This document shows positions 6,001 through 59,173 of a DNA stretch of 64,000 bases, one piece after another. This DNA comes from a virus. Taxonomy: Duplodnaviria > Caudoviricetes. A program made the translations under genes and the position numbers. Positions within the stretch are counted from its first letter, which is position 1. Each line of letters begins with the position of its first letter. The stretch is from positions 85,499-149,498 of the IMG/VR virus record IMGVR_UViG_3300028048_000065. One strand, given 5' to 3'. The notes under the pieces are model-generated. The model saw only the letters and a program-made list of their open reading frames with translations. It ran no database searches and was not told the DNA's origin.

Positions 6001-9000
6001 CAAGAGAAGTTTCAACGTCGTTTAACCGCGCCCAATCTTCCGCATTATAGTTTTCAGACTCAATATCTTCCTGAGCCGCTACAAATTTTCCTGCGGCCAC
6101 ATTTTGATACCTTGCATAAAGACTTTTCATAGATTCGCCAATACTGGCCTCGCTCTTTTGTGTTACGTCAATCATTGTAGTAACATAACCAATAAATCTA
6201 TTCATCTCCGTTCCTGCAAGCTACGCCGAATTGTTTGCACGGCTCATTGCTTCTGCAATGCCACCCGCGCTTGCCTGTTGTGTTACCTTATATTTTCATA
6301 TAAGCACTGACTATATCTTCACCCATTGCTGGGGTACACTACTTCGATTTGTTATCTACGTTTAGTCGATGAGGACGCTTCTCATTAAAAGCTTTCCTGC
6401 TGATTGACCAATCTTTATAATTTTTAAACCGTCACATTCAGACTTATTTCATTCTCCTGTTGTGGTTTATAAAGCTCTAAGGTGTTTTCAGCATTTCAAT
6501 GTATTTTCCTTATATGTTACCATATTTGCGACCTATTTATTTTAAGCCGCCGCCATGTCTACTGCGTTATGTTTACATTTAGTCGGCTATTCTAAATGCG
6601 ATTTAAATATAAAATTAAATCCACTTCCTTTCGGAACGTGACCAGACTATTTCTTCACCCTTTAATTAAAGGGGCAAACTATTTCGGATAACTTTTAAGC
6701 CTTGTTACCCTACCTTTCTCTCAAAAGATAGTCGTTGAAAGCAACAAATCATTATGCATAACAATTTGTCCACTTGCATGAACATCCATTATTACGAATA
6801 CTTAGGATTTAACCTTATATTCATCCTTACGTTTTTTCTACTTTCGTCCCATCACGCTTATCATTACTGATTACGTTGTGGTGTAAGGCTTTAGGATTTA
6901 CCTGCTTTTAAGTTTGTGTCCTATGCCGATTACTCGACATACGCTGCATATTGTTACAGTTAATTTATCGACAACTCCCATGACTTCACTGGCTTCGATT
7001 TTCCAGCCCTTCAACACGCTAATCAAATAGCTCGTTGCATCAGCACTTTCAATCATACCAAGCGTACTTAAATACATAGAAGCTTTAGTTAAATCACTTG
7101 CTTCCTTACCTTGATAACCTGCACGAAGCCAATCATTTGCCGCAACAGCGACTTCTTGTGTACTCTTTCCAACTTCTTTAGCAAGATTGTTAAATTCATA
7201 CATCATGTTTTTAACATCACTATAACCCATTCCAGCCGCTATTTGTAAATCTACCATAGCCGCATCAAGGTCTTTTGTATATTGCCAAACTTGTTGTAAA
7301 GAATTTTTAATATAACCAATTGCTACATAAGCTAAACTATAGTCTGTTAAATTTCTAAGAGAAGCTTTGAAACCATTTGCAATTTGTTGAATTAATCCAA
7401 CACTTTCTTTTTGTCTTAAATTAATTTTTGCAAGTTTTTCTTCTTGGGATGCTTGAGAATTTTCTATCTATTTGTTAAATTGAAGTCTTTCTTGTTCGCT
7501 TAATTGGGTTCCATCACTAAATTTACCAGTATTACTATCATAGCTAACAGTTTGATTCTTGATAGCTTGCAATCTGGATTGATACATCTCAACTAATTTT
7601 TGTTGCTCTTTGCTACGGGGTCCAACTTGGTCATCCATAGAATTTTGGAGAGTGAGCATATCTCTCTCAATTTTTTGTTGTTCCTTAAGAGATTTTAAAT
7701 AATTTTTCTTTAACGCATCAGCTTGCTTAAGTTGAGCAACTTCCTATTGTTGCTTTGCTTGAGCTGTATCGTAAGCTGTCTGAAGTCCACTTAAGAAATT
7801 TTGAATTAGTTGCGCTGCTTGCTGATTAAAAGGAGTAGGAAGTTCAAGATTGTGTAATTTATCTTGTATCCCAGTTCTATCCGCAGCGTCCACCTAAGCC
7901 TGATAAGTCTCTTCTAAACTATCCTTTTGAGAATTTAAAACTTGTAGCTCTCTTTCTAAAGTTGCTAAACGGACTTGATTTTCTTCATTATCGCTTCCGA
8001 TAAGATTGCTACGCTCTTCCTCTAAAGTTTTAATTTTAAGAGTTACCTCGGCAAATTTCCCGTAAGTTTTTAAGGCTGAACGAAGATTAGATTCAAAATC
8101 TTTCATTTGTCCAATAAGATTATATTGACCTTCATGAACAGCAGTATTATTTTCTTGCTCATTGAACAAGTTGTCTAAATTACGAGGGGCTCTTAGTGCT
8201 GGGTCTACAGAATCATTTCTAAATCTTCTACCATTATAAGGTAAGTTAGACTAATCTCTGGGAGCCTCAACATTAGGAGAACGATTTCCACCTTCTTCAA
8301 GTTCATCTATTCTTTGTTCGTATTCCTTTACTTGTTCTTGAAGAACCTGAATATCTCTACGCAATTCAGAATTGTCATTTCCAGTTGCAACAGAAACAGT
8401 TTCTCCGCCAAAAGTAAAAGGCAATTCACTTTCTTTTGCGGCTTCTCCTTCTACCTTTAAGGCATCAGACAATTTTCCCGCGACTTCTAATTTATCTTTT
8501 TCAGCTTGAACAGCTTTTTGCACAGCTTCAGCATGAGAGTTAAAAGCTTCAGTAGAATCTTTTATAGAAGCAGTTTCGATAGACAATCCATTCGCACCTG
8601 AAACTGTAGTAGGAGCAGTATTTTTTGGTTCATCTGGAACGTAATATTTTCCACTATCTACCAAAGATTGATAACGATTCATTAACCCAGTTAAAGGGTC
8701 TTCTTTTTTTACTTCAGTTGTAACACGACCATCAGATAGCCCTTTAAAATTACCTTCTTGATTCATTCGGGCGGTAATAGCTTCCTAATATTTTTTCTCA
8801 GCTAAAGCCATTTTTTCTTCCATACTTAAAGCTTTAACTGTTCCCTTGCTCTGTCTTTCTTCTAACGCTCCCTTTAAAGTTAATATATCTGCACAAACAG
8901 CTTTATAATAAGCTCTTTTAACTTCTAACTCGTCTTCGCTTGCCGTTAAAAGGTCTTGTTCTATTTGTTCTCTTTCTTTTTGAGCATTAGTTAATTGGTC

Positions 9001-23346: not shown

Positions 23347-23352
23347 GTCTTA

Positions 23353-24009
23353 TTAAGACACCCCACTCATCCAACAACCCATTACAACTTTAATTCCTTC
23401 AAAGTTTCTATTATTCCAAATGCCATATTGAGCTTGCTGAAAACGACTCATCGTTCCAGAAAATTCCATCAATCCAACACCTTGAACATTAGCACCATTA
23501 AGCAAAGAAATTATAGCTTGTGTTAAAACAGATATTCTACTTTTAGTCTCGACATAGTATTCAACACCATCAACAATATCAATGGGCAAACCTTTGTCTT
23601 CTTCATTAGCAGCTATATTAATACACTTATTATGAGTGATAATATCTATACCGACATTAACAACTGCTTTATATGGGTCTTTAGGAATAATACCATCTAT
23701 ATAGACCTTAAGCAAAGTTGCCTCTGTCAAAAAAGCGTCTTCAAAATGAGGACTTCTAAAAATCCTCTTATCCGTTTGTGTTATATCATCATTCGCAATC
23801 AAACCCACAACTTTTTTATAAGTGGGCAATTTCTTGTTTAAAGCATCTCCCGTATTATAAGTTAAAAGTTTCCATATCGTGTGAGTAGCTTTTAACTCTT
23901 CTTCCGTCTTATTATTGGGAGACAGTAAATAATAAATAATCCTATCCTCAATTCCATCAAGCGTAACAAAACGGTTTCGAGCATTAGGAGCAAAAGTATT
24001 ATCTAACAT
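23353..24009 (-). CDS. Putative tail completion/terminator protein
   Basis: 218-aa ORF; function from position only. Confidence 0.5.
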   Translation of the reverse strand: MLDNTFAPNARNRFVTLDGIEDRIIYYLLSPNNKTEEELKATHTIWKLLTYNTGDALNKKLPTYKKVVGLIANDDITQTDKRIFRSPHFEDAFLTEATLLKVYIDGIIPKDPYKAVVNVGIDIITHNKCINIAANEEDKGLPIDIVDGVEYYVETKSRISVLTQAIISLLNGANVQGVGLMEFSGTMSRFQQAQYGIWNNRNFEGIKVVMGCWMSGVS

Positions 24010-27360: not shown

Positions 27361-29865
27361 TTACTGAAGCTGGATGCAACCGATTTTGGAACCAATCACA
27401 ATGCCAACACCGAGACGCATATCAACGGTGAAGCCATAAGTATGGTCAGCGGCATACATCGGGTCACGCTGAACGCTAACACTATTGCCTTCCATGACAA
27501 CGTGAACAGGCTTGTTAAAGCCAAGAGGAAGCATATAAATAATATCATCATCAAGGACAACTTCAGGAGTGCCGTTGATGGTGTTAGGAACGAGGCAATT
27601 ACCAAGCTCGATTAGAGGAATCTTCTTGTACTCAGGAAGATAACCATCACGAACGATAGAACCAGCCTCACCATAACGGAAGGACTGAGCATCAGCAGGA
27701 AGAACGTCAGCAAGAGCAATGTTAGTACCAAGAGCATAAACCTGAGCACCACCATTGGCAAGAGAAACGTTACGCGCCGTAGTGAGCCAGTTAGCATCAG
27801 TCATACCATTAGCGATATAGCCAGCAATGCCGTGCTCACCAGCGGTGGTGATAACATCGGACATAACCTTAGCGACACGACCCATAACATAAGCGGCAAA
27901 GGAAGCGCCAACCTTGGCAAGAAGAGAACCCCAATTTAATTTTCCTGCGGAAACGTGGTCGAATTTTGTTTAATTATTCTTTTTTATTTTCTTCTTTTAA
28001 ATATTCATCAAGAAAGATTTGCTCAAAATATCTTTCTGTGTGAGTTAAAATTTCAATTTTTTCTTTTAATTGTTCTATAGTTGGAATGTTATGACCGCCT
28101 TTTATTCTTAAAGTTTTATAACCCAGTTTTAATAAAGCTTTATCTCTGGCAAAATCACGTTGCTTATCTTTATGCCAAAACCAACCATCATATTCAACAT
28201 CTATTTTTACTCCATCTATTTCGATAAAACAATCCAAACTTAAATTACTTACGGGATAATTTATTTCAACTGTTTCATATTCATTTAACAACATCTCATA
28301 AATTTGCTGTTGTGGCTTTGATATAGGTATTTTTCCAGATTTAGCAAAAGCCGCTTGCATTTTTTCTCTTATTTCAGGAGACTGACAAATATATTCTACC
28401 CCGTACCTCTCTAAGCACGTCGTTTTACTTTTCTCTCTAACTTCTGGAATGCTAAAAGCGCTTATTACCCCATATTTATCTAACATAGCTTGCTGTGATT
28501 TTTCTTTCATTTCTGGAAGCTAAACAACATATTCTACGCCATAACGTTCTAAATTTGTTTTCTTTATCTTTTCAACAATTTCTGGAACTTGCATAAAATT
28601 TTCTGTCCCATATTTTTCTTTGCAAGTATTTTTAGCCTTTTCCTTTGAAGATTCAAGTTTGGCTGGATTACTTACTCCATATTTTTTTAAACAAGTTTCA
28701 CGAGTCTGATTTGCTTTTTTTGACAATTCTTCTTTATTAGAATTAAAACATTCTTTGCAAAAATACTTACCGTCATGTTTAGAAATTCTTTTTAAATAAA
28801 TTCGATAAGTCATAATTAATTCCTTGCCACACTTATCACAAATGGCAGTAATTTCACGACAACTTCCTTTTGACAAATCTTCTACTTTTACTTCTAATTC
28901 TTTTTTATTTGTCCAATCATATCCTAAATCTGTAAATCTACGATATGCTGTAGCAGTTAAAGGAATTGTTAAAGTTTTTTCTTTTATCATGTTTTCTCCA
29001 CATTTTTATATTAAAAAAGAATAATTTATCTTTGCTTTTCAACAAAGTCAAGACTATATCATCATCATTTTCAGATGCTTACCATATCAGAGAATTGAGC
29101 ATTTCTCTTACTCTTTAAAAAGATAGTCGTTGAGCCTAAATCTCATTAAATTTTTGGCTGCTGATTTACTATTATTAAAGCACTTAGGATTTAACCTTAT
29201 GCCATTCAACTAATTTTTTCTACTTTCGTCACCGTCACGCCTAAGCTTATTTCATCTTTACGTTGTGGTTTAGCTGACTTTAAGTATTTCCAGCAATTAA
29301 GTAAGTTTATTAATATGTATATTTCTATACACTCTGGCTACCATGCTTTTCCGCATTAAGCAATTTTTAACCAGTCACAATAGAGGCTAATGGTCTGACG
29401 TTGAGCCTGAATGGTGTATTCAGTGTTGCTTGCAGTCTGCTGCGCACCATTGCGGATACCTTCAGCAAGGTCATTAACAATGAAGAGCTCATTGCTCTCG
29501 ACTTGGAAAGCTGCGGAGTCGCCAAAACCAACCTGAGTTACATCATAGAGCTGGTCATAGCCAGAAGCGACAACAGTAGGAATAACGGGAGTAAGAATCT
29601 GAGCAAGAACGACATCGAACTTCTCAAGGAAGGAGCTATTCTTGTGAACCATAGGATTCTTAATATCCTCAAGACCATTGTAATTCATAACATTACCCTC
29701 GGCGCAGAACTTCATGAGAGATTCATTGAACTGCTTGTTAGCTTCGGAATACTCATGAGTATTGCCCTTGCCCTCAAGGAAAGCCTGAGTCAGAGCATAA
29801 CCAGATTCAACAATGCCGTCAAGAGCTTCATCGTTGAACTTATTGTAGCTAAAAATGTGTTTCAT
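27361..29865 (-). CDS. Major capsid protein, exons 29865-29370 and 27959-27361 (364 aa)
   Basis: Splicing gives ...SLYCDW-Y-HVSAGKLNWG.... Size, codon bias and position after protease and decoration genes fit. Confidence 0.85.
27960..29369 (-). mobile_element. Group I intron in capsid gene carrying a homing endonuclease (1,410 nt)
   Basis: AATTGCTGGAAA, AATCAGCAG, TCAACGACTA and GATATAGTC motifs. Exon CUGGU pairs with GCCAG; ends in G. Confidence 0.9.
27974..28990 (-). CDS. Intron-encoded homing endonuclease (Zn ribbon, KYGV repeats, Vsr/DUF559-like nuclease), 338 aa
   Basis: Two track ORFs join at TAG 28520. CxxC pairs and EYDGWFWH motif; lies 3' of the S element. Confidence 0.8.
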
Positions 29866-33914: not shown

Positions 33915-36900
33915 TTATTCATCCTCTTTGTCTTGTTCACCTTTTATGCCCATAACTTCTCGAATACGCTCATCATATTTTTCTTCCAAACATTCATCAC
34001 AAATACCTTCTTCGCCATAATCCAGCTCTTTGCCACAAATAGCACATTTAGCTACGCTAAATTCCTTGATGTCAGAAACATTAGTCCCATTGTCCGCAGA
34101 AGTAGCAGTAGAATCGTTTGTTATTTCATCTTCATCAAGTTTAGGTCTGCCAACATTATCTTTAGAAGTTACTTTCTCCTCAGAAGTTGTAGTTGTAGTT
34201 TTAGCAGAAATTTTGTTTGTTGCGGTCTTTAACGCGAGCCTATTCGACTCTTCAACATTTTCTTGAGCGAGAACCTTTTCAACTTTAATATTAAGTTCTT
34301 TCATCCAAGAAGTTGAAGTAGAATAATCAAGGACACTCATTCCCATAGCAGAAAGCAGTTTCGGGAACATCCCTTCAACACCAGAGAACACCAATTCTTT
34401 AAGTTGTTTAGTTTCCTCATTATGAGTGAAAATACCACCCCAAAGATAGATTCTCCATTTATATTTTAAACCAAGAGTATTATTAATTATATAATTCATA
34501 TAGCTTTCATATTGACGAACCATATAATCAACACGAGACTCTTGAATATATTGAGCCGCCTTAACAGATGCGATACTGGGCTTATCAGTAATACTCATAA
34601 GAGCAGAATTGCCAGATGTTGCAATCAAATCACGAGTACGGTCATAAATAATATCCATATTCTCAGGTTGATTTTCAAGTGTATGTAATTCAAATTCTTT
34701 AAAGGGAGCAAAAAAGCTCATAATATTAGAAGATACGCTGGAATTAAATAGGTCACTATAGCCCATTACTGTATCTGCGCTAATTGCTGTAGAATCCTTA
34801 CCCGCACTCGGGTCTTTCCATTATTATTTGTTTAGTATTAGAATATTTAAATTCCTGAGATTATCAATCTCAATACCGTTACTTTCGTAACCACAATATT
34901 TCTATTGTGTGCAGACTATATCTTCATCTATTTAAATAGATGTCTACCACTTCGGTTTGATTGATGAAGTCAAACCTACTCCCCTAAAGGGATAGTCGTT
35001 GAGCCTTCTCATTTAAGAGCTTGGCTGCTGATTGTCCATTTCAGTTACATTTTCTAAATAAAAAATAAATTTATGTCCTTTGACAGCATTTAATTTCCCT
35101 TTACAAACTTTCAAAATACCAGACGAGTCAACATTTAAATCTCTACCCGCATCCGCTGCATTGTTGTAAATCTTACCAGATTCGACTTCCTATATTGGGC
35201 GATAAGGACGACTTTCCAATTTAGGATTATAATTGCCAGATAAATAATCCTTTTGATATGCAAAACGATGTCCCCCTGTAGTAATTCGGATACCTCTACA
35301 TACGTCTCTTATTTTTATCATATTAATCCCTAATTTTTCAGACGCTTCTTTGGCAGATTCATACACTTCTCCCGTATCAATATCTATTATTCTTTTATTC
35401 TTACCTCTGGTTTTAATTTCATAATCCCCCGTTAAATAATCTTCTAAATAACAAAATTGATAACCGTTTGCAGATTTAGCTCTTCCTTTGCAACAAGCAG
35501 TAATATTAGATGCCTGAATAATTTTTAATAGGCGAGCGGCCTCTTCCGCACTTGGATAGATAGTGCCAGCAATTAATTCTACGACAGGTTTCCCATTCAT
35601 CTGCTAACTCAATAAAGCCGCACGAGACTGCGCTTCAGCATAATCTTTAACACTTACTTTGTAATATCGTTTTGTATCCCCGTCCGTTTTGTGACACATT
35701 AACCACCACGCAAACTATAAAGATTTTACGTCTGGATTTTCTATTGCCAAAAGTTTATGACAATAATAATGTTCTTCAGGGAAAAGAATAATAATATTAT
35801 CTTTATTATCTTTTCCTCCCATGCATTTTGGAAGAATATGATGGCCTTCAGTATAAATATTTTCAGGTCTGTTTTTCTTTCCTAAATTTCTAATTGTTTT
35901 CAACCTGTTAATATAATCCTAATACGACTCGTTTTCGTTAGGTTCTATATACATTGCATAAGTCATAATATTCCTCCCCTCTTATTTATTTTTTGTTTTA
36001 TTTTTTATTTAGTAACTCTCTTCCGTAGGTTTTAACCATAGAAGAATCTTAGTCATTATTTCTCTTTTCAGAACCCTTTAAGGTTGACTAAGCTTTAGGA
36101 TTTTCCAGCATTTCGATAGATAATTTTTCGAACATATTACTATGAACGTGGTCTATTTTTTCTAAACCAAAGGAACTTCAGCAGTAAGAATACTTGTAAC
36201 ACCCTTACTTAACAAATTAGCCTGTAACCAACGATAATCATCAAGTTCATTTAAGTCATTAAACAAACCGATAGCATCAGGCAACATATTAGGATGAGCA
36301 CCATCACTATAGAAAGTGTAACACAAATCTTGAGGAAGTTGTACCCAATAAAAATAAGCATCTCCCTTACTCTCAAGAATACCCCCACGAGGCAATTTAG
36401 CTCTTGGATTTACTTTCTTGTTACCCTTTTTATCCTCAATGATAATTCCACTTTCAAGCATTTCTGCCCAAGTATCTCTAATAAACTAAGGATATTGGTC
36501 AACACTATACGCAGGTTGTAAAAAAATCATCATATTAAAGCTTGCAATAAACTTCTATCTACTACCAAATCCAGTCATTTTAATCATGTCTGTATTTAAT
36601 TTCTGCAAACTCCAAAAATCAACAGAATCTTTATCATAACTTAATCTTGTAAGATAGCTACTTTTACCCTCAAGACTTACTTGAGTGGTAACAGTTTTCC
36701 ATGTTAAATTGGGCTCAAAAGACTTAATAGCCTTGTCAACCATTTCAGCTTCTTTTTTAAAATCATCTTTCTTTAAATCAGCTTCTTTAACATACTAAGG
36801 GAGATAATACCAATTATACTTTGCAGTATCACGGTTCAGTTTAATTAATAGATTATATACATAATTTGTATAATAGAGCCACATACTAAGTTGCATAAGT

Positions 36901-53923: not shown

Positions 53924-54323
53924 CTGCGGTACTTAACTCCTTTCTCGTGTTGTCGTAATTATTTACTCAAAAAAATTTAAGTCTAAAAACCTTTTAACTC
54001 TAAACCTAAATTTTTGTCAATAAATAACCTTAATAAGTTCACGTTTAATTTTCAATTTAAATAAACAGGAGATTCCCCCACCCAAAAGAATCTCCTGTCT
54101 CTCCTGTGCGCCACCATATACCACACAGGCTCGCCGCATTTTTTATTAGTTTAATAGTTATTATCCTACAATTCCCCATAAACTCAGATAATAACTGTTG
54201 TGCTGATTAGCTTCTGTGTAAGTTATCAACAGTACCTTTTTAGTATTTTTTTCTTGTTAATTATAGAATATAAAATGTTGCTGTTAGCGACGAATTATTA
54301 ATTATTTTAAAATCGTTTAGTTA

Positions 54324-57300
54324 TTATCGTTTACTGTACTTCGTAAACGGATTCGCTCCACCTTTATTCGCAAACGGATTTTGCGAAGCCTTTGAAGCTG
54401 TTCCAGAACGCCTACGTTGAGCTAATAGGTCTGTAAACGCTGTTACTGGCTTCTCTTCGAGAGTGAGAGCTTCTTGTGCTCGAAGCTCCATAATAAAATT
54501 ACCAAGCATTGCACAACAGTCTACACGGTCGTCATGAAAATTACGTTGCTTCGCATCAGGTGACAATTCAAATACTATCGTACCATTCGGTCTCTTTGTC
54601 TTTTGCATAGCTACAACCTCTTCTTTTAAAAGGTCAATTTGAGCTAAACTTATCATATCTTCATAGCCAGCTTTTTCATATCTTAACTGAGTAGTACCAT
54701 CAGCAGCTTGCTCTTCAAATTCCATTTCATTACGAGCGTTCAAGGATTTCGGAAACATAATCAATCCTTGGTTTATTGCTTGTTGAGTACGTTCATAAGC
54801 CTGTACTTTATCACGCTTAAAGTTAAAAAGAACTAACTTTTTTATAGCTTCTGGATAATCGTCAAGTCTTAATTTCATATATGGGTCGTTTTCATCAATA
54901 ATACCATAATGAGATTTTCCTTGCTTATCAGTCCATGTATTTAAAAGCACTGCCGCAGCATCAAATCCGCCACCACCTGCACCAGCATCAAATTGTATAG
55001 TTAAAATATTATCATAATCTATTGCGCCCCTGTTATAATCAAGAAGCATCTATTTGACTATTTCAATTTGTTCTGGTTTTTGTATTACCATCTTATCTCC
55101 ATTTGGCAAAGTCTCAATTAAGTTTACACCATTTACTATTTTTGCCATCCAACCTCTTACTTCATCATGAATAATCTCTGCTATAAGAACAAATGAATTA
55201 TCCAATTTGGAAGCAGGGTCCCAGAAAATTGCGTATTTCTTTTCTCCATCATTGGCATATACTGGATAATAAGAATAACTATTTTTTAAAATTGTTGAAC
55301 GTTTTACAAAAACGTCCTCGCCACCATCTCTATCAAAACGATTATTATCAATAAATATATCATATATTAATATTAGACTATATCTTCTTCCCAAAAGGAA
55401 GCTCACCACTGAATTTCTTCTTTAGTCGTTGAACCTTTTCCTATTCGGAACTTGGATGCTGATTGTTTATTATTCCAATGTTTAGGTTTTAACCTTGCAT
55501 CAATCTTTATTTTCTTTCTACTTTCGTTGCATTCACACCTATTTCTTTCGAAATTATGTTGTAGCAATAAAGATATTAAAACTTTCCAGCAATTCAATGA
55601 GTTTAACATATTTCTATTAAAAATATGTGAGCTAACTTTAACTCTCTTTCCGCTTTGTAAGGATTAGTAGCAAATGCGTTATCCACCTCATCTTGTGTAA
55701 TCAAAGGTCTCATCGGTTTTCCATTCATCATTGGATGTAATGAAAAACTACAATCTATATCACACACAAAATAATTAGGGTCGCCTTGTAACATTTTTTC
55801 AAATGCCATTTTATATTGGTCAAAAAGTTCACTATCAATTCCTTCTGCCGAAGATAGCAATAACTTTTTGTTCGGTAATTGTAATGGATAAAGGTCTGTA
55901 TTTATTCCTTCACCCGTTATAAAGTTGGTATCTTGTGCTGTAAACGGACGTGACAGGGCATAGAAATTCCTGTCGATTTTCAATTATATTAACTTCTTTT
56001 CTCAAAGAAGATTAGACTATATCTTCGCTTTTTGCGCTCCCTGTTTCGGATTATTCCTATTAGTCGTTGAACCTCTTCCTCTTCGGATTTTGGCGGCTGA
56101 TTGCCTAAATTTAAATATTTTTAAACCTTCACACTTGACCTTTAAAATCTATGTTGTAGTTATTTAAATATAAAGGGATTCCAGCCATTAAGGGAGTTCG
56201 GGCAAATCTTCACCCGCTTCGTCATAAACCATTTTTATATTAGCTTTTTCTCTCAAAAAAGATTAGACTATATCTTATTCTTTTCAGAATCTTTCCATTA
56301 CGAAAAATCTTTCGTCTTAGTCGTTGAATCTTACTCTATTCAAGTCTTGACTGCTGATTATCTATTGATACAATTTTTAGGATTTAACCTTGAACCATCT
56401 AAACAATTTTTTCTACTTTCGTCGCATTCACACTTGCTTCTTTCGAAACTATGTTGTAGCTTGTTTAGCTTTAAGATTTTCCAGCAATTAAAAAAGTTAT
56501 TTTTCTAACATATTTCTATGAAAGTTAGCGTTTTTTCACTAAAATTGGACCTTATACCAACTATATTTTTAATAACACTGTTCAAAGTGTTAATTGTGCT
56601 ACCATTATATAATTCTACACTATAGCTCTGTTTTGCATGAGTAAACGGGTCTGCCGTGGAATTCATTCTTACACATTCATCCAAAAATACGGAACTCACT
56701 CCTATAACAGATGCAATATTTCCTTTTGCAAGGTCTTCAAGCTTTGTAAATGTACCTTGAGCCTGACCTCCGCTTGGAGCCATAATATATGTATTTGTGT
56801 TTGGAAGTAATAATGCTCTTGCCATCATAAATGGAGTCACAAGATAACTATTATGCGTTACCGTGTAATTATTACCACAGAGAAACAACCCCGATGGATT
56901 ATCTACTGTAATACAACGCATTGCTATTTTGTTTCCAGTTTTTCTTATGGCTTTTATTTTCTTTTTTCCTTCTTTTACTTTCGGGACAAAAAAGCGAGAT
57001 TCCTATCCCATCTTCTTTAAAATAGCCCCAGTTTCCAATGTTTTCCACTTATTATCGCAAGAATCAAACACTTTCCACAGATGTTCAGAATTGCAAGAAA
57101 TCTTCTCTCCATCTTCAAATTCAACAACATATTCGTTTTCAATAACGATTGGATTAAGATGGATTACTTCTGTTAAATTTCCACTTTCATTATATATTAC
57201 ATCACCAACTTTAAGGTCTCCAATTGTTTTCTTTTCTATTTTTTCACCTCTGTCAGTTGTGCGATAATATACAGGAGTATCAAGCGAAACGGCCTTGCCG

Positions 57301-57515
57301 CTGTTTCTGCCCATAAGCCAAACAACATTTGCAGGAATCCAACTGCTCATTAACACATATTTCTACATATCTGTTAATTGCAGTTTAAAAAAATCTTCAA
57401 TAAATCTGGTGGGATTTGCTCGACCCCATCTTATAATTTTACAGTATTTATCAAAAATCTCTTTTCTTTTTGGTAAAATCTCACAATCAAGCAAATTAAA
57501 AATAGGGCTAACCAT
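54324..57515 (-). CDS. terL: Terminase large subunit; exons 57515-56538, 56229-56212, 55980-55641, 55348-54324; contains an intein; ~638 aa mature
   Basis: Q motif LTDM-Q(TAG), Walker A GRNSGK-S, Walker B VYDEAG, REY, nuclease WDPA and HDDRVD reconstructed after splicing. Confidence 0.92.
55349..55640 (-). mobile_element. Group I intron (TerL intron 3), 292 nt
   Basis: P/Q/R/S motifs; exon GAGU pairs with GCUC; splice restores AERE-Y-NNRF. Confidence 0.9.
55981..56211 (-). mobile_element. Group I intron (TerL intron 2), 231 nt
   Basis: AATGGCTGGAA, AATCAGCCG, TTCAACGACTA and AAGATATAGTC motifs; exon CGGGU pairs with GCCCG; ends in G. Confidence 0.9.
56230..56537 (-). mobile_element. Group I intron (TerL intron 1), 308 nt
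   Basis: P/Q/R/S motifs; exon UUAGU pairs with GCUAA; ends in G. Confidence 0.9.
56850..57293 (-). mobile_element. Class 3 mini-intein in TerL (148 aa)
   Basis: Starts with Ala (AVSLDTPV) right after the Walker A Lys, ends VTHN before Ser. WCT signature (EHLW, MRCITV, THN); no endonuclease domain. Confidence 0.88.
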
Positions 57516-59173
57516 TAGTAACCACCCCATTCTGAACCGTTTTCTTCAGCTATTTCTTTTGCTTTTTCTTCCAAATCTCTTTTTGTCATTTCATATTTTA
57601 ACTTGCGATTCTCTTCTTGAAGAGCATCTTTTTCTCTCGTAAGTTTTTGAATCCTTTGTAATTGCTCAGTACACTGTTTAGCATATTCCGCATCACTCAT
57701 ACTAAGCTGATTAAAAATAGCTTTAAAACTTGCATTGGCGGCTTGTTCAATACTCTTACTTGTTTCAATGTCATACATATTAAGTATAGCATCTTCATAT
57801 TTCATTTCATTCATCTTAGCCATAATGCCAGTAAACGAATTTTCACCCTTAGCTTTAGCTATAGCATAACGCTCACCAAAGCCATTATCACGACTAAATT
57901 TAGTAATTGTATCAAGTTGTTTATTTTTCAGGTCAGCTAAATTTTTCAATTCAGCTACACTTCCATCGCCAGACATCATTCGTCTTTCTCTCTCGTTTAA
58001 TTCACGAATGCGAGAAAAAGCTAAAACAATTTGACAAGCAGCTTGGACTTTCAAACCATCAAGTTCCATACCAGCTTCAAGCATACCCAACAAATCCTTG
58101 TAAAGTATTTTACGATTTTCCTCTGGTTCAAAATAAAACGGGTCATAGCCAACATTTTTCAAAACTAATCTTTTAGCTTCTAAATCTTGCTTGCTCCACC
58201 CATTTTCAGTATCATCACCAACACTACCGTCTTTGCTATTAATAATCTTTTTATCTTTATCCTGTCTACCATTACCATTTACTCCACTGCTACCAATCAT
58301 TCCTTGAATATCTTTACTTTCAAGAAATACTTTTCCTTTAGCAGTAGCACTTTGATTCATAATAGACATATAACTATCAATAATATGTTTTTTACTATCT
58401 TTTTTAGAACACTCTTGTTTGGCCTATAGATAAATTGTCTCATCATAATAAATATTCAAAGCACTACAAAACCACATCATCGCAACTTGACCATCTTCTT
58501 TTGCTTTTTCAAAAAACAAATATTCATATAGTCTTTTACAACAATCTTTACATAAATGAGTGTGCATTTTACCTGTTGGTTCAACTCTTGCCAAATCCAT
58601 CTCATTATAATTGAGATAATATTCGCCTTGGGGCAAAGGTCTACCACAACAAGTACAAACATATTTGTTGTATAATGGAACATATCTTCCAAAATATTTC
58701 ATCCATACTGTATAATATTTTTGTAAATATTCAGGAACATTAATTCCATCTTCTTTTTTCTTTTTACTTTTACTCTTTTTGCCAGAGTTTATTTTTTCCA
58801 TTATATCAGGAGTAACATAATCTTCATCCGCAATAATTTCATTTTGCTCATCAATGCCACCCTGAAAAGCCTTTTCAGCGTCTAAATAAGTTTGAAAATC
58901 AATCTTATTTATTTCGCCCGTTTCTTTATCTCTAAAGAATTCAATTGGCTCTAAAAAAGCATTTATATCAATAGAATCTTCAAGTTTAGGTGCGCCATCA
59001 TTACCAATAATTTCAAGCATGGCTTTTTGTCTTTCTGTGCCAAGGGCTTTTTTCCAGCCTTCACCAAAATTAGCCTTTTTATTTTGAAGTTCCATTTTCT
59101 TTTGAATAGCATTAATTTCCTTTTCAGCTTTTTGCTATTCTCTAACTCTGGCAGCCTGACCTAATTTAGCCAT
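57515..59173 (-). CDS. Zn-finger protein upstream of TerL, possible small terminase, 552 aa with TAG=Gln
   Basis: Fragments join across TAG 58424 and one near 59135; CTCC..CKDC; TAATG coupling to terL. Confidence 0.65.

Follow-up and report, generated by a model that had tools for sequence, protein, structure and literature searches.

The present analysis concerns terL, the gene for the large terminase subunit, of a gut phage (Duplodnaviria; Caudoviricetes) represented by IMG/VR record IMGVR_UViG_3300028048_000065. The record comprises 149,498 bp and is approximately 69% complete, and the stretch analyzed here, termed the window, is the 64,000 nucleotides (nt) at its positions 85,499 to 149,498. 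In this phage, which decodes TAG as Gln, terL occupies window positions 57515-54324 on the minus strand and is interrupted four times, by one intein and three introns (I1, I2, and I3). All of the terL features described below likewise lie on the minus strand. The gene opens with exon 1 (56538-57515; 978 nt), which includes the coding sequence of a 148-amino acid (aa) mini-intein (56850-57293) and has the 3′ end ...AAT TTT AGT (SNFS) at 56538. This is followed by I1 (56230-56537; 308 nt), the 18-nt micro-exon 2 encoding VYDEAG (56212-56229), I2 (55981-56211; 231 nt), exon 3 (55641-55980; 340 nt), which encodes KIDRNFYAL...NPYKAERE as well as the first base of a Tyr codon, I3 (55349-55640; 292 nt), and exon 4 (54324-55348; 1025 nt), which encodes the nuclease half of TerL, contains one in-frame TAG, and ends in a TAA stop codon at 54326-54324. 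All three introns are group I introns devoid of open reading frames (ORFs). Once the RNA is spliced, the precursor ORF contains 786 codons plus the stop, and the mature TerL lacking the intein contains 638 aa. The terL ATG overlaps the TAA of an upstream gene of 552 aa (TAATG, 57513-57517), which suggests coupled translation of the two genes, and a 5-kb RNA contig continues from exon 1 into this upstream gene.

The identity of the gene product is evident from its relatives. A search with exon 4 yielded 57 full-length relatives with E values down to 1e-142; those of 631-642 aa are uninterrupted, whereas the longer proteins contain insertions, most often in the P-loop. In total, roughly 200 members of the family were encountered. 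The uninterrupted relatives match PHROG_2 'terminase large subunit' (E 1e-21 to 1e-28), and a profile of 30 family members aligns with T4-type gp17 (3ezk, E 3e-7) across both the Walker A (lsRqlGKT) and Walker B segments. In the Walker B alignment, gp17 miyiDEcaF is paired with the family sequence nvyDEagfi, such that the micro-exon lies opposite 'yiDEcaF'. VYDEAG therefore holds the Walker B Asp and the catalytic Glu, and within the family E182 is invariant and D181 nearly so. Both a Walker A of the form GxxxxGK[ST] and a Walker B of the form hhhhDE, as expected for a TerL of the T4 gp17 type (ATPase plus nuclease), are present. A Pfam scan of the separate exons and of the intein returned nothing meaningful. 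Furthermore, a tblastn search of 50,697 phage records with exon 4 gave zero matches, and this TerL family is therefore unrepresented among deposited phages.

Comparison with uninterrupted TerL proteins fixes the exon structure. Five such relatives produced five collinear tblastn blocks on terL, including a block of 7 residues at 56229-56209, and across the joints the homologs read GIRSNFN-VYDEAG-KIERDFYAL (also NVYDEAGKI) and REY-YNK-FDNDGG. Joined in this manner and freed of the intein, the 638-aa product aligns to 13 uninterrupted homologs (631-642 aa) with zero indels. The Tyr codon is split by I3 as T|AT (55641|55348). For exon 1, ends at ...SN or ...SNF are ruled out by homolog length, P1, and the RNA joint, leaving ...SNFS as the preferred end. 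For I3, a 3′ site at 55361, where the Rfam alignment ends, would add the residues IFID, which occur in 0 of 13 homologs, and the RNA joint lies at 55348; for both reasons, the 3′ site is placed at the G at 55349, 12 nt past the Rfam end. A nearly identical locus lacking all of the interruptions is also available. This locus, L002, encodes an uninterrupted ORF with 617 of 638 residues identical (96.7%) and zero indels, and its DNA contains the predicted joints at all four places, including ...AATTTTAGT GTTTACGATGAGGCTGGT AAAATCGAC... and ...GAGT ATAATAAC....

The introns were recognized by the Rfam group I intron model RF00028, a covariance model of the P3-P8 core with a gathering score of 50 bits. 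Its matches within terL lie at 56244-56547 (52.5 bits), 55993-56235 (61.5 bits), and 55361-55650 (32.2 bits, E 1.7e-5); hence I1 and I2 exceed the gathering score and I3 scores under it. I3 and I1 have 73% identity across 269 nt, I1 and I2 have a common 42-nt 3′ end that is 90% identical, and the cores of all three are 72-77% like those of group I introns from Staphylococcus, Clostridium, and Bacillus phages. The 5′ splice contexts are AGU|G (I1), GGU|G (I2), and AGU|U (I3). As read from the sequence at the RNA-defined joints, the exon-final U pairs with intron G9 in a U.G wobble within P1 of all three introns, the P1 pairings being UUAGU/GCUAA (I1), CGGGU/GCCCG (I2), and GAGU/GCUC (I3), and each intron terminates in a G (56230, 55981, and 55349, respectively). 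A P10 can be similarly discerned for I1, in which the GUUU at the start of the micro-exon pairs with an AAAC just 5′ of the I1 guide sequence, and the P1 of I2 uses the last 5 nt of the micro-exon. With its first 4 nt committed to the P10 of I1 and its last 5 nt to the P1 of I2, the 18-nt exon therefore serves both introns without overlap. Given their homology to other group I introns, I1-I3 would presumably self-splice in a guanosine-initiated and protein-free manner. The window minus strand also contains further group I matches at 6287-6554 (54.5 bits), 29030-29393 (45.9 bits), and 34892-35131 (51.2 bits). The six matches in the 64-kb window are all six of the genome record. Apart from the introns of terL, the window contains two or three more.

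Direct evidence of splicing was obtained from RNA. Sixteen cattle and pig gut runs contain at least half of the words sampled from the stretch, among them X3 and X4, which are metatranscriptome runs of one bovine-gut sample containing 0.99 and 0.91 of the words, respectively. The joint 55348|55641, with exactly 292 nt removed, occurs in both of these RNA runs. A contig at 56537 has 29 preceding letters, which match in reverse complement the micro-exon together with the first 12 nt of exon 3; one base at the joint is ambiguous. This contig therefore reads exon 1, exon 2, and exon 3 in succession, with 56538 joined to 56229 and the micro-exon to 55980. An RNA contig in X3 covers exactly exon 3 (55641-55980), all three RNA-ligated joints match those of the intron-less L002, and the in-frame TAGs are kept in the RNA contigs. 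These contigs show that the RNA is spliced at each of the three sites and that the micro-exon is retained. Such joints could in principle also stem from DNA contamination if an intron-less phage lived alongside this one, as DNA can occur in RNA libraries, intron-less alleles such as L002 exist, and a diverged relative lacking intron 3 is found in the pig-gut DNA run X7. This is very unlikely to be the case. The RNA contigs over the exons have zero base differences from the window, and the spliced micro-exon carries the synonymous codons of the window allele (GTTTATGACGAAGCGGGT), whereas L002 differs from these at 4 of 18 positions and a second related locus, L001, at 3 of 18. For these reasons, the joints come from the RNA of this phage and not from intron-less DNA. 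Contamination is further disfavored by the presence of each intron in some contigs of the same RNA runs, at depths below those of the exon contigs. Additional candidate joints were considered as isoforms and rejected: both 56976->57540 (21-nt sides, 14 foreign letters) and 55438->56406 are attributed to other contigs that match A-rich or intron-core sequence over short lengths.

The individual parts of the gene are supported as follows. Exon 1 is delimited by tblastn blocks, P1 pairing, an RNA contig, and L002; the micro-exon by homologs, the T4-type gp17 alignment, and RNA contigs; exon 3 by a tblastn block and an RNA contig; and exon 4 by homologs and an RNA contig spanning 54313-55348. I1 is defined by its RF00028 match and RNA joint, I2 by its RF00028 match, an RNA contig, and its absence from L001 and L002, and I3 by its RF00028 match, its similarity to I1, and its RNA joint. 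A previous interpretation of the window, made from the letters alone and referred to here as the sequence-only reading, had proposed a terminase interrupted four times, and this is borne out by the Rfam matches, the homolog alignment, the RNA joints, and the uninterrupted L002. The same holds for its placement of an 18-nt Walker B micro-exon at exactly 56229-56212 between two introns, which agrees with homologs, RNA contigs, and L002, as well as for its proposals that the third intron splits the Tyr of REY, as evident from T|AT and the RNA joint 55641|55348, and that an intein directly follows the Walker A Lys, as evident from its start at A75 and its absence at that point from L001, L002, and homologs. 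The alignment to uninterrupted TerL that it had put forward as a check is collinear and free of indels for both the 13 homologs and L002.

The intein corresponds to precursor residues 75-222 and lies between Lys74 and the Ser of the P-loop GRNSGK|S. It starts at A75 (57293), ends in ...THN|S (56850|56849) with a +1 Ser, contains one in-frame TAG, and is absent at exactly this point from L001, L002, and the 631-642-aa homologs. Several observations assign it to the class 3 inteins, for which the WCT triplet is a stated hallmark (PMC5050341). It combines an Ala at position 1 with a WCT triplet formed by W73 (B:12), C127 (F:4), and T146 (G:5), and its C-terminus, ...VTHN|S, presents an Asn preceded by His and followed by a +1 nucleophile. 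W73, C127, T146, H147, and N148 are invariant in 20 of 20 homologous TerL mini-inteins, in which position 1 is Ala or, rarely, Cys. A profile of the homologous inteins matches the class 3 DnaB inteins of M. smegmatis (6bs8) and M. chimaera with an E value of 5e-23, and its motifs align with HQW, RCVEV, and PTHN of 6bs8. The AF2 model has a predicted local distance difference test (pLDDT) value of 93.7, with a lower, but still confident mean of 83 for residues 91-100, the stretch around the second TAG. Foldseek matched this model best to the 'class 3 DnaB intein from M. smegmatis' (TM 0.77/0.88), the top matches being 6bs8, 6riy, and 6rix. The element thus exhibits a HINT fold in frame, no Cys, Ser, or Thr at position 1, a WCT triplet, and a His-Asn end. 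By homology, protein splicing would be expected to follow the class 3 route through the block F Cys and a branched thioester.

The three in-frame TAG codons of terL are found at codon 51 (57363-57365), at precursor codon 171 within the intein (57003-57005), as read from the translation, and in exon 4 in the context IVK-Q-MLLDY (55050-55052). Under the standard code, terL breaks into short ORFs, whereas translating TAG as Gln opens frames across the whole window, such as ORFs of 2082 and 1736 aa that contain 12 and 13 TAGs, respectively. The genome encodes a tRNA with anticodon CTA at genome positions 23348-23422. The first TAG of terL stands opposite a Gln (D.QKY) that is conserved without exception in 30 members of the family. 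At the third, L002 has an ordinary Gln codon; six residues upstream the situation is reversed, with TAG in L002 and a Gln codon in the window, so that TAG and ordinary Gln codons are swapped between the two alleles at positions six residues apart. Based upon the lengthened ORFs, the tRNA(CUA), the TAG opposite an invariant Gln, and the TAG/Gln swaps with L002, TAG is reassigned to Gln genome-wide rather than being occasionally read through. The sequence-only reading had held that packaging needs three RNA splices, one protein splice, and TAG read-through; its tally of processing steps and its TAG decoding stand, but its term read-through must give way to genome-wide reassignment with a tRNA(CUA). 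The suppressor belongs to a cluster of ten tRNAs located outside the window (genome record C1:23348-30546), which also includes a tRNA-Gln (TTG).

The occupancy of the insertion sites varies considerably among relatives, for which six related viral contigs were fetched for DNA comparison. L001, which is 99% identical in exon 4, lacks the intein as well as I1, I2, and I3, but carries one different insertion of 271 nt, which lies 11 nt upstream of the I1 site and matches the group I model weakly (28 bits). L003 has only the intein. In L007 (57% identical), an intein in the P-loop is accompanied by a group I intron (79.5 bits) whose position coincides exactly with the I1 site, and L008 has an insertion of approximately 320 nt a little further upstream. 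In L004-6 (64-71% identical), a 1.4-kb insertion with group I core similarity to I1-I3 is present at TerL residue 423/424; this insertion (L004:3072-4500, also in L005 and L006) is long enough for an endonuclease gene. It is evident that at least three distinct insertion sites exist within 29 nt around Walker B in a single TerL family. An Rfam search over six related loci at E <= 0.001 gave zero matches, which reflects the filter, as narrower searches matched the introns of L001 (28 bits) and L007 (79.5 bits). Viral contigs were also scanned for an exact pattern joining Walker B to the start of I2, and the window's own record was the only match. The same terL architecture is present in pig and cattle samples of several studies. 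Since occupancy differs among near-identical alleles, the arrangement appears to be a pile-up of selfish elements and not a conserved switch. The elements can best be regarded as selfish DNA that invaded conserved sites, with no sign of a regulatory role.

A regulatory role would have been conceivable for the micro-exon in particular. As the sequence-only reading had correctly calculated, the micro-exon is in phase 0 at both flanks, and skipping would therefore delete VYDEAG in frame, creating a joint (56538->55980) that reads ...AATTTTAGT followed by AAAATCGACAGG.... If competition between I1 and I2 were to join exon 1 to exon 3, the micro-exon might serve as a regulated cassette whose ATPase-dead product poisons or delays the packaging motor. 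The 90% identity of the 42-nt 3′ ends of I1 and I2 could let one core take the 3′ site of the other, and exon skipping between tandem group I introns has been reported for SIOphi and Twort orf142 (PMC11878797). In the RNA, neither the skipped joint nor a contig with I1 removed and I2 retained was among the contigs listed; as contigs drop rare forms, either absence is at most weak evidence. In X4, one contig has 12 nt of exon 3 followed by the micro-exon, I1, and then 29 nt of exon 1; molecules therefore exist from which I2 has been removed and in which I1 is retained. Splicing may accordingly be ordered, with I2 removed before I1. Also unfavorable to the cassette, the AAAC that forms the I1 P10 pairs with the GUUU of the micro-exon and not with the AAAA at the start of exon 3. 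Lastly, there are alleles of 96-99% identity without such introns, and the arrangement is thus recent and dispensable. We consider a regulated cassette improbable, and have a similarly low opinion of a kinetic version of it, in which I1 would occasionally use the I2 3′ site, and the in-frame but ATPase-dead TerL made in this way would tune or delay packaging in a phage already gating its late genes by TAG decoding. Skipping as such is possible, but unsupported.

In our view, this phage with TAG recoded to Gln has a functional terL whose ATPase motifs have been invaded by four independent self-splicing mobile elements, and we would assign this interpretation a probability of roughly 90%. Chance origin of the arrangement is excluded. 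The minus strand would be transcribed through terL, with the upstream gene, the stop of which overlaps the terL start codon, probably sharing the transcript, and the three ORF-less group I ribozymes would excise themselves, with the 18-nt micro-exon providing I1 with its P10 and I2 with its P1. The resulting 786-codon mRNA would be translated with the phage tRNA(CUA) reading its three TAGs as Gln, after which the class-3-type intein would presumably excise itself from the precursor using the Cys at block F:4 as nucleophile, restoring the P-loop GRNSGK-S and yielding the 638-aa TerL. The unusual density of interruptions might alternatively suggest a decaying pseudogene, with packaging carried out by another terminase, and as the record is only ~69% complete, a second terL could exist. 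A pseudogene is extremely unlikely, given that every exon is in frame with all invariant family residues, the introns are spliced in vivo, every catalytic residue of the intein is retained, and the same architecture recurs in pig and cattle samples of several studies. Certain observations do count against a functional gene of this structure. Firstly, the RNA support consists of assembled contigs from one sample, and contigs neither quantify isoforms nor exclude rare alternative joints. Secondly, I3 lies under the Rfam gathering threshold and a clear P10 was not found for it. Thirdly, protein splicing and the ATPase activity of the mature enzyme are predicted from homology. Lastly, an Arg replaces a Gly of Walker A in both intein-less alleles: where the window reads GRNSGKS, L002 (3607-5523) has GRNSRKS and L001 (3336-3858) has RRNSGKS. 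This Arg could be a homing-site change, tolerated variation, or damage.

Directly downstream of terL, the same strand contains a candidate for a very abundant small RNA (54060-54290, minus strand). A promoter-like CTAACA-16-TATAAT is located at 54287-54260, followed by an RNA contig at 54252-54131 with a depth of ~15,000 in X4, compared with ~118 for terL, and then by two strong hairpins and a U-run terminator at 54129-54063 (z score -5.75). The region gave zero Rfam family matches at E <= 1.

The significance of the locus is partly practical. This terL is invisible to ordinary annotation, as standard-code gene calls are fragmentary and its separate exons are without a Pfam match, and the case shows that terL, the main marker in phage phylogeny, can be recovered in recoded, intron-rich gut phages. 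It also provides a natural, RNA-supported example of how brief an exon between two group I introns can be: 18 nt, of which 4 are used for P10 and 5 for P1. Furthermore, three intron sites at Walker B within 29 nt, together with an intein in the P-loop, support the notion that homing elements concentrate on catalytic motifs. What is newly added by this locus is the 18-nt exon, the ORF-less paralogous introns, the alternative code, and RNA support from a natural community.

When compared with known systems, the individual components are all familiar. Insertion between the Lys of Walker A and the next Ser corresponds to the 'classic' TerL1-a site of mycobacteriophages (Kelley et al. 2016, PMC5050341), and the intein resembles TerL1-a and other class 3 inteins (PMC5050341, PDB 6bs8) in its Lys|Ser/Thr site, Ala1 and WCT signature, mini size, and HINT fold. 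It differs from them in residing within another TerL family of a gut phage in which TAG encodes Gln, in having a TAG inside the intein, and in an identity to 6bs8 of only ~28%. Phages employing genetic code 15 (TAG = Gln) in the gut are also comparable, since their terminases have TAG opposite Gln, they encode a suppressor tRNA, and they originate from animal guts. Terminase genes of these phages are fragmented by mobile introns 'in rare cases', which were left unresolved in that study in favor of the largest fragment (Borges et al., bioRxiv 10.1101/2021.08.26.457843), whereas for the terL described here the exons, introns, and intein are all delineated, with support from RNA.

Parallels to the introns exist in other phages as well. 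In Staphylococcus phage Twort, the late gene orf142, which encodes the tail tube, contains three group I introns, all of them ORF-less. Escherichia phage rV5 has an Enterobacteria host, uses the standard genetic code, has an HNH endonuclease in one intron, and encodes a TerL of a lineage unrelated to that of the window. The likeness to Twort is in the number of ORF-less group I introns within a single late gene and the difference is in the host gene, which is a tail tube gene in Twort; exon skipping of orf142 is among the reports cited in PMC11878797. The likeness to rV5 is in a TerL cut into several segments by introns, three segments being given for its terL in Kropinski et al. 2013 (PMC3606486). 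Further parallels are the multi-intron terL and DNA polymerase genes of the Bastillevirinae, a group of Bacillus phages. Their terL genes contain two or three group I introns, and a small exon between two introns was found there only by complementary DNA (cDNA) reads; splicing was shown both in vitro and in vivo, and exon skipping was reported for tandem introns (PMC11878797). Both there and here, terL is split by group I introns and a small exon lies between two introns. Bastillevirinae introns average ~800 nt and often contain HNH or other endonuclease genes (PMC11878797), whereas those of the window are 231-308 nt and ORF-less, and its internal exon has just 18 nt that constitute the Walker B core. 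Neither an intein nor a recoded stop is described for the Bastillevirinae (PMC11878797), whereas the window terL has both. This terL represents an extreme case of something already known: selfish elements of familiar kinds are stacked within one gene, and no new mechanism is entailed.

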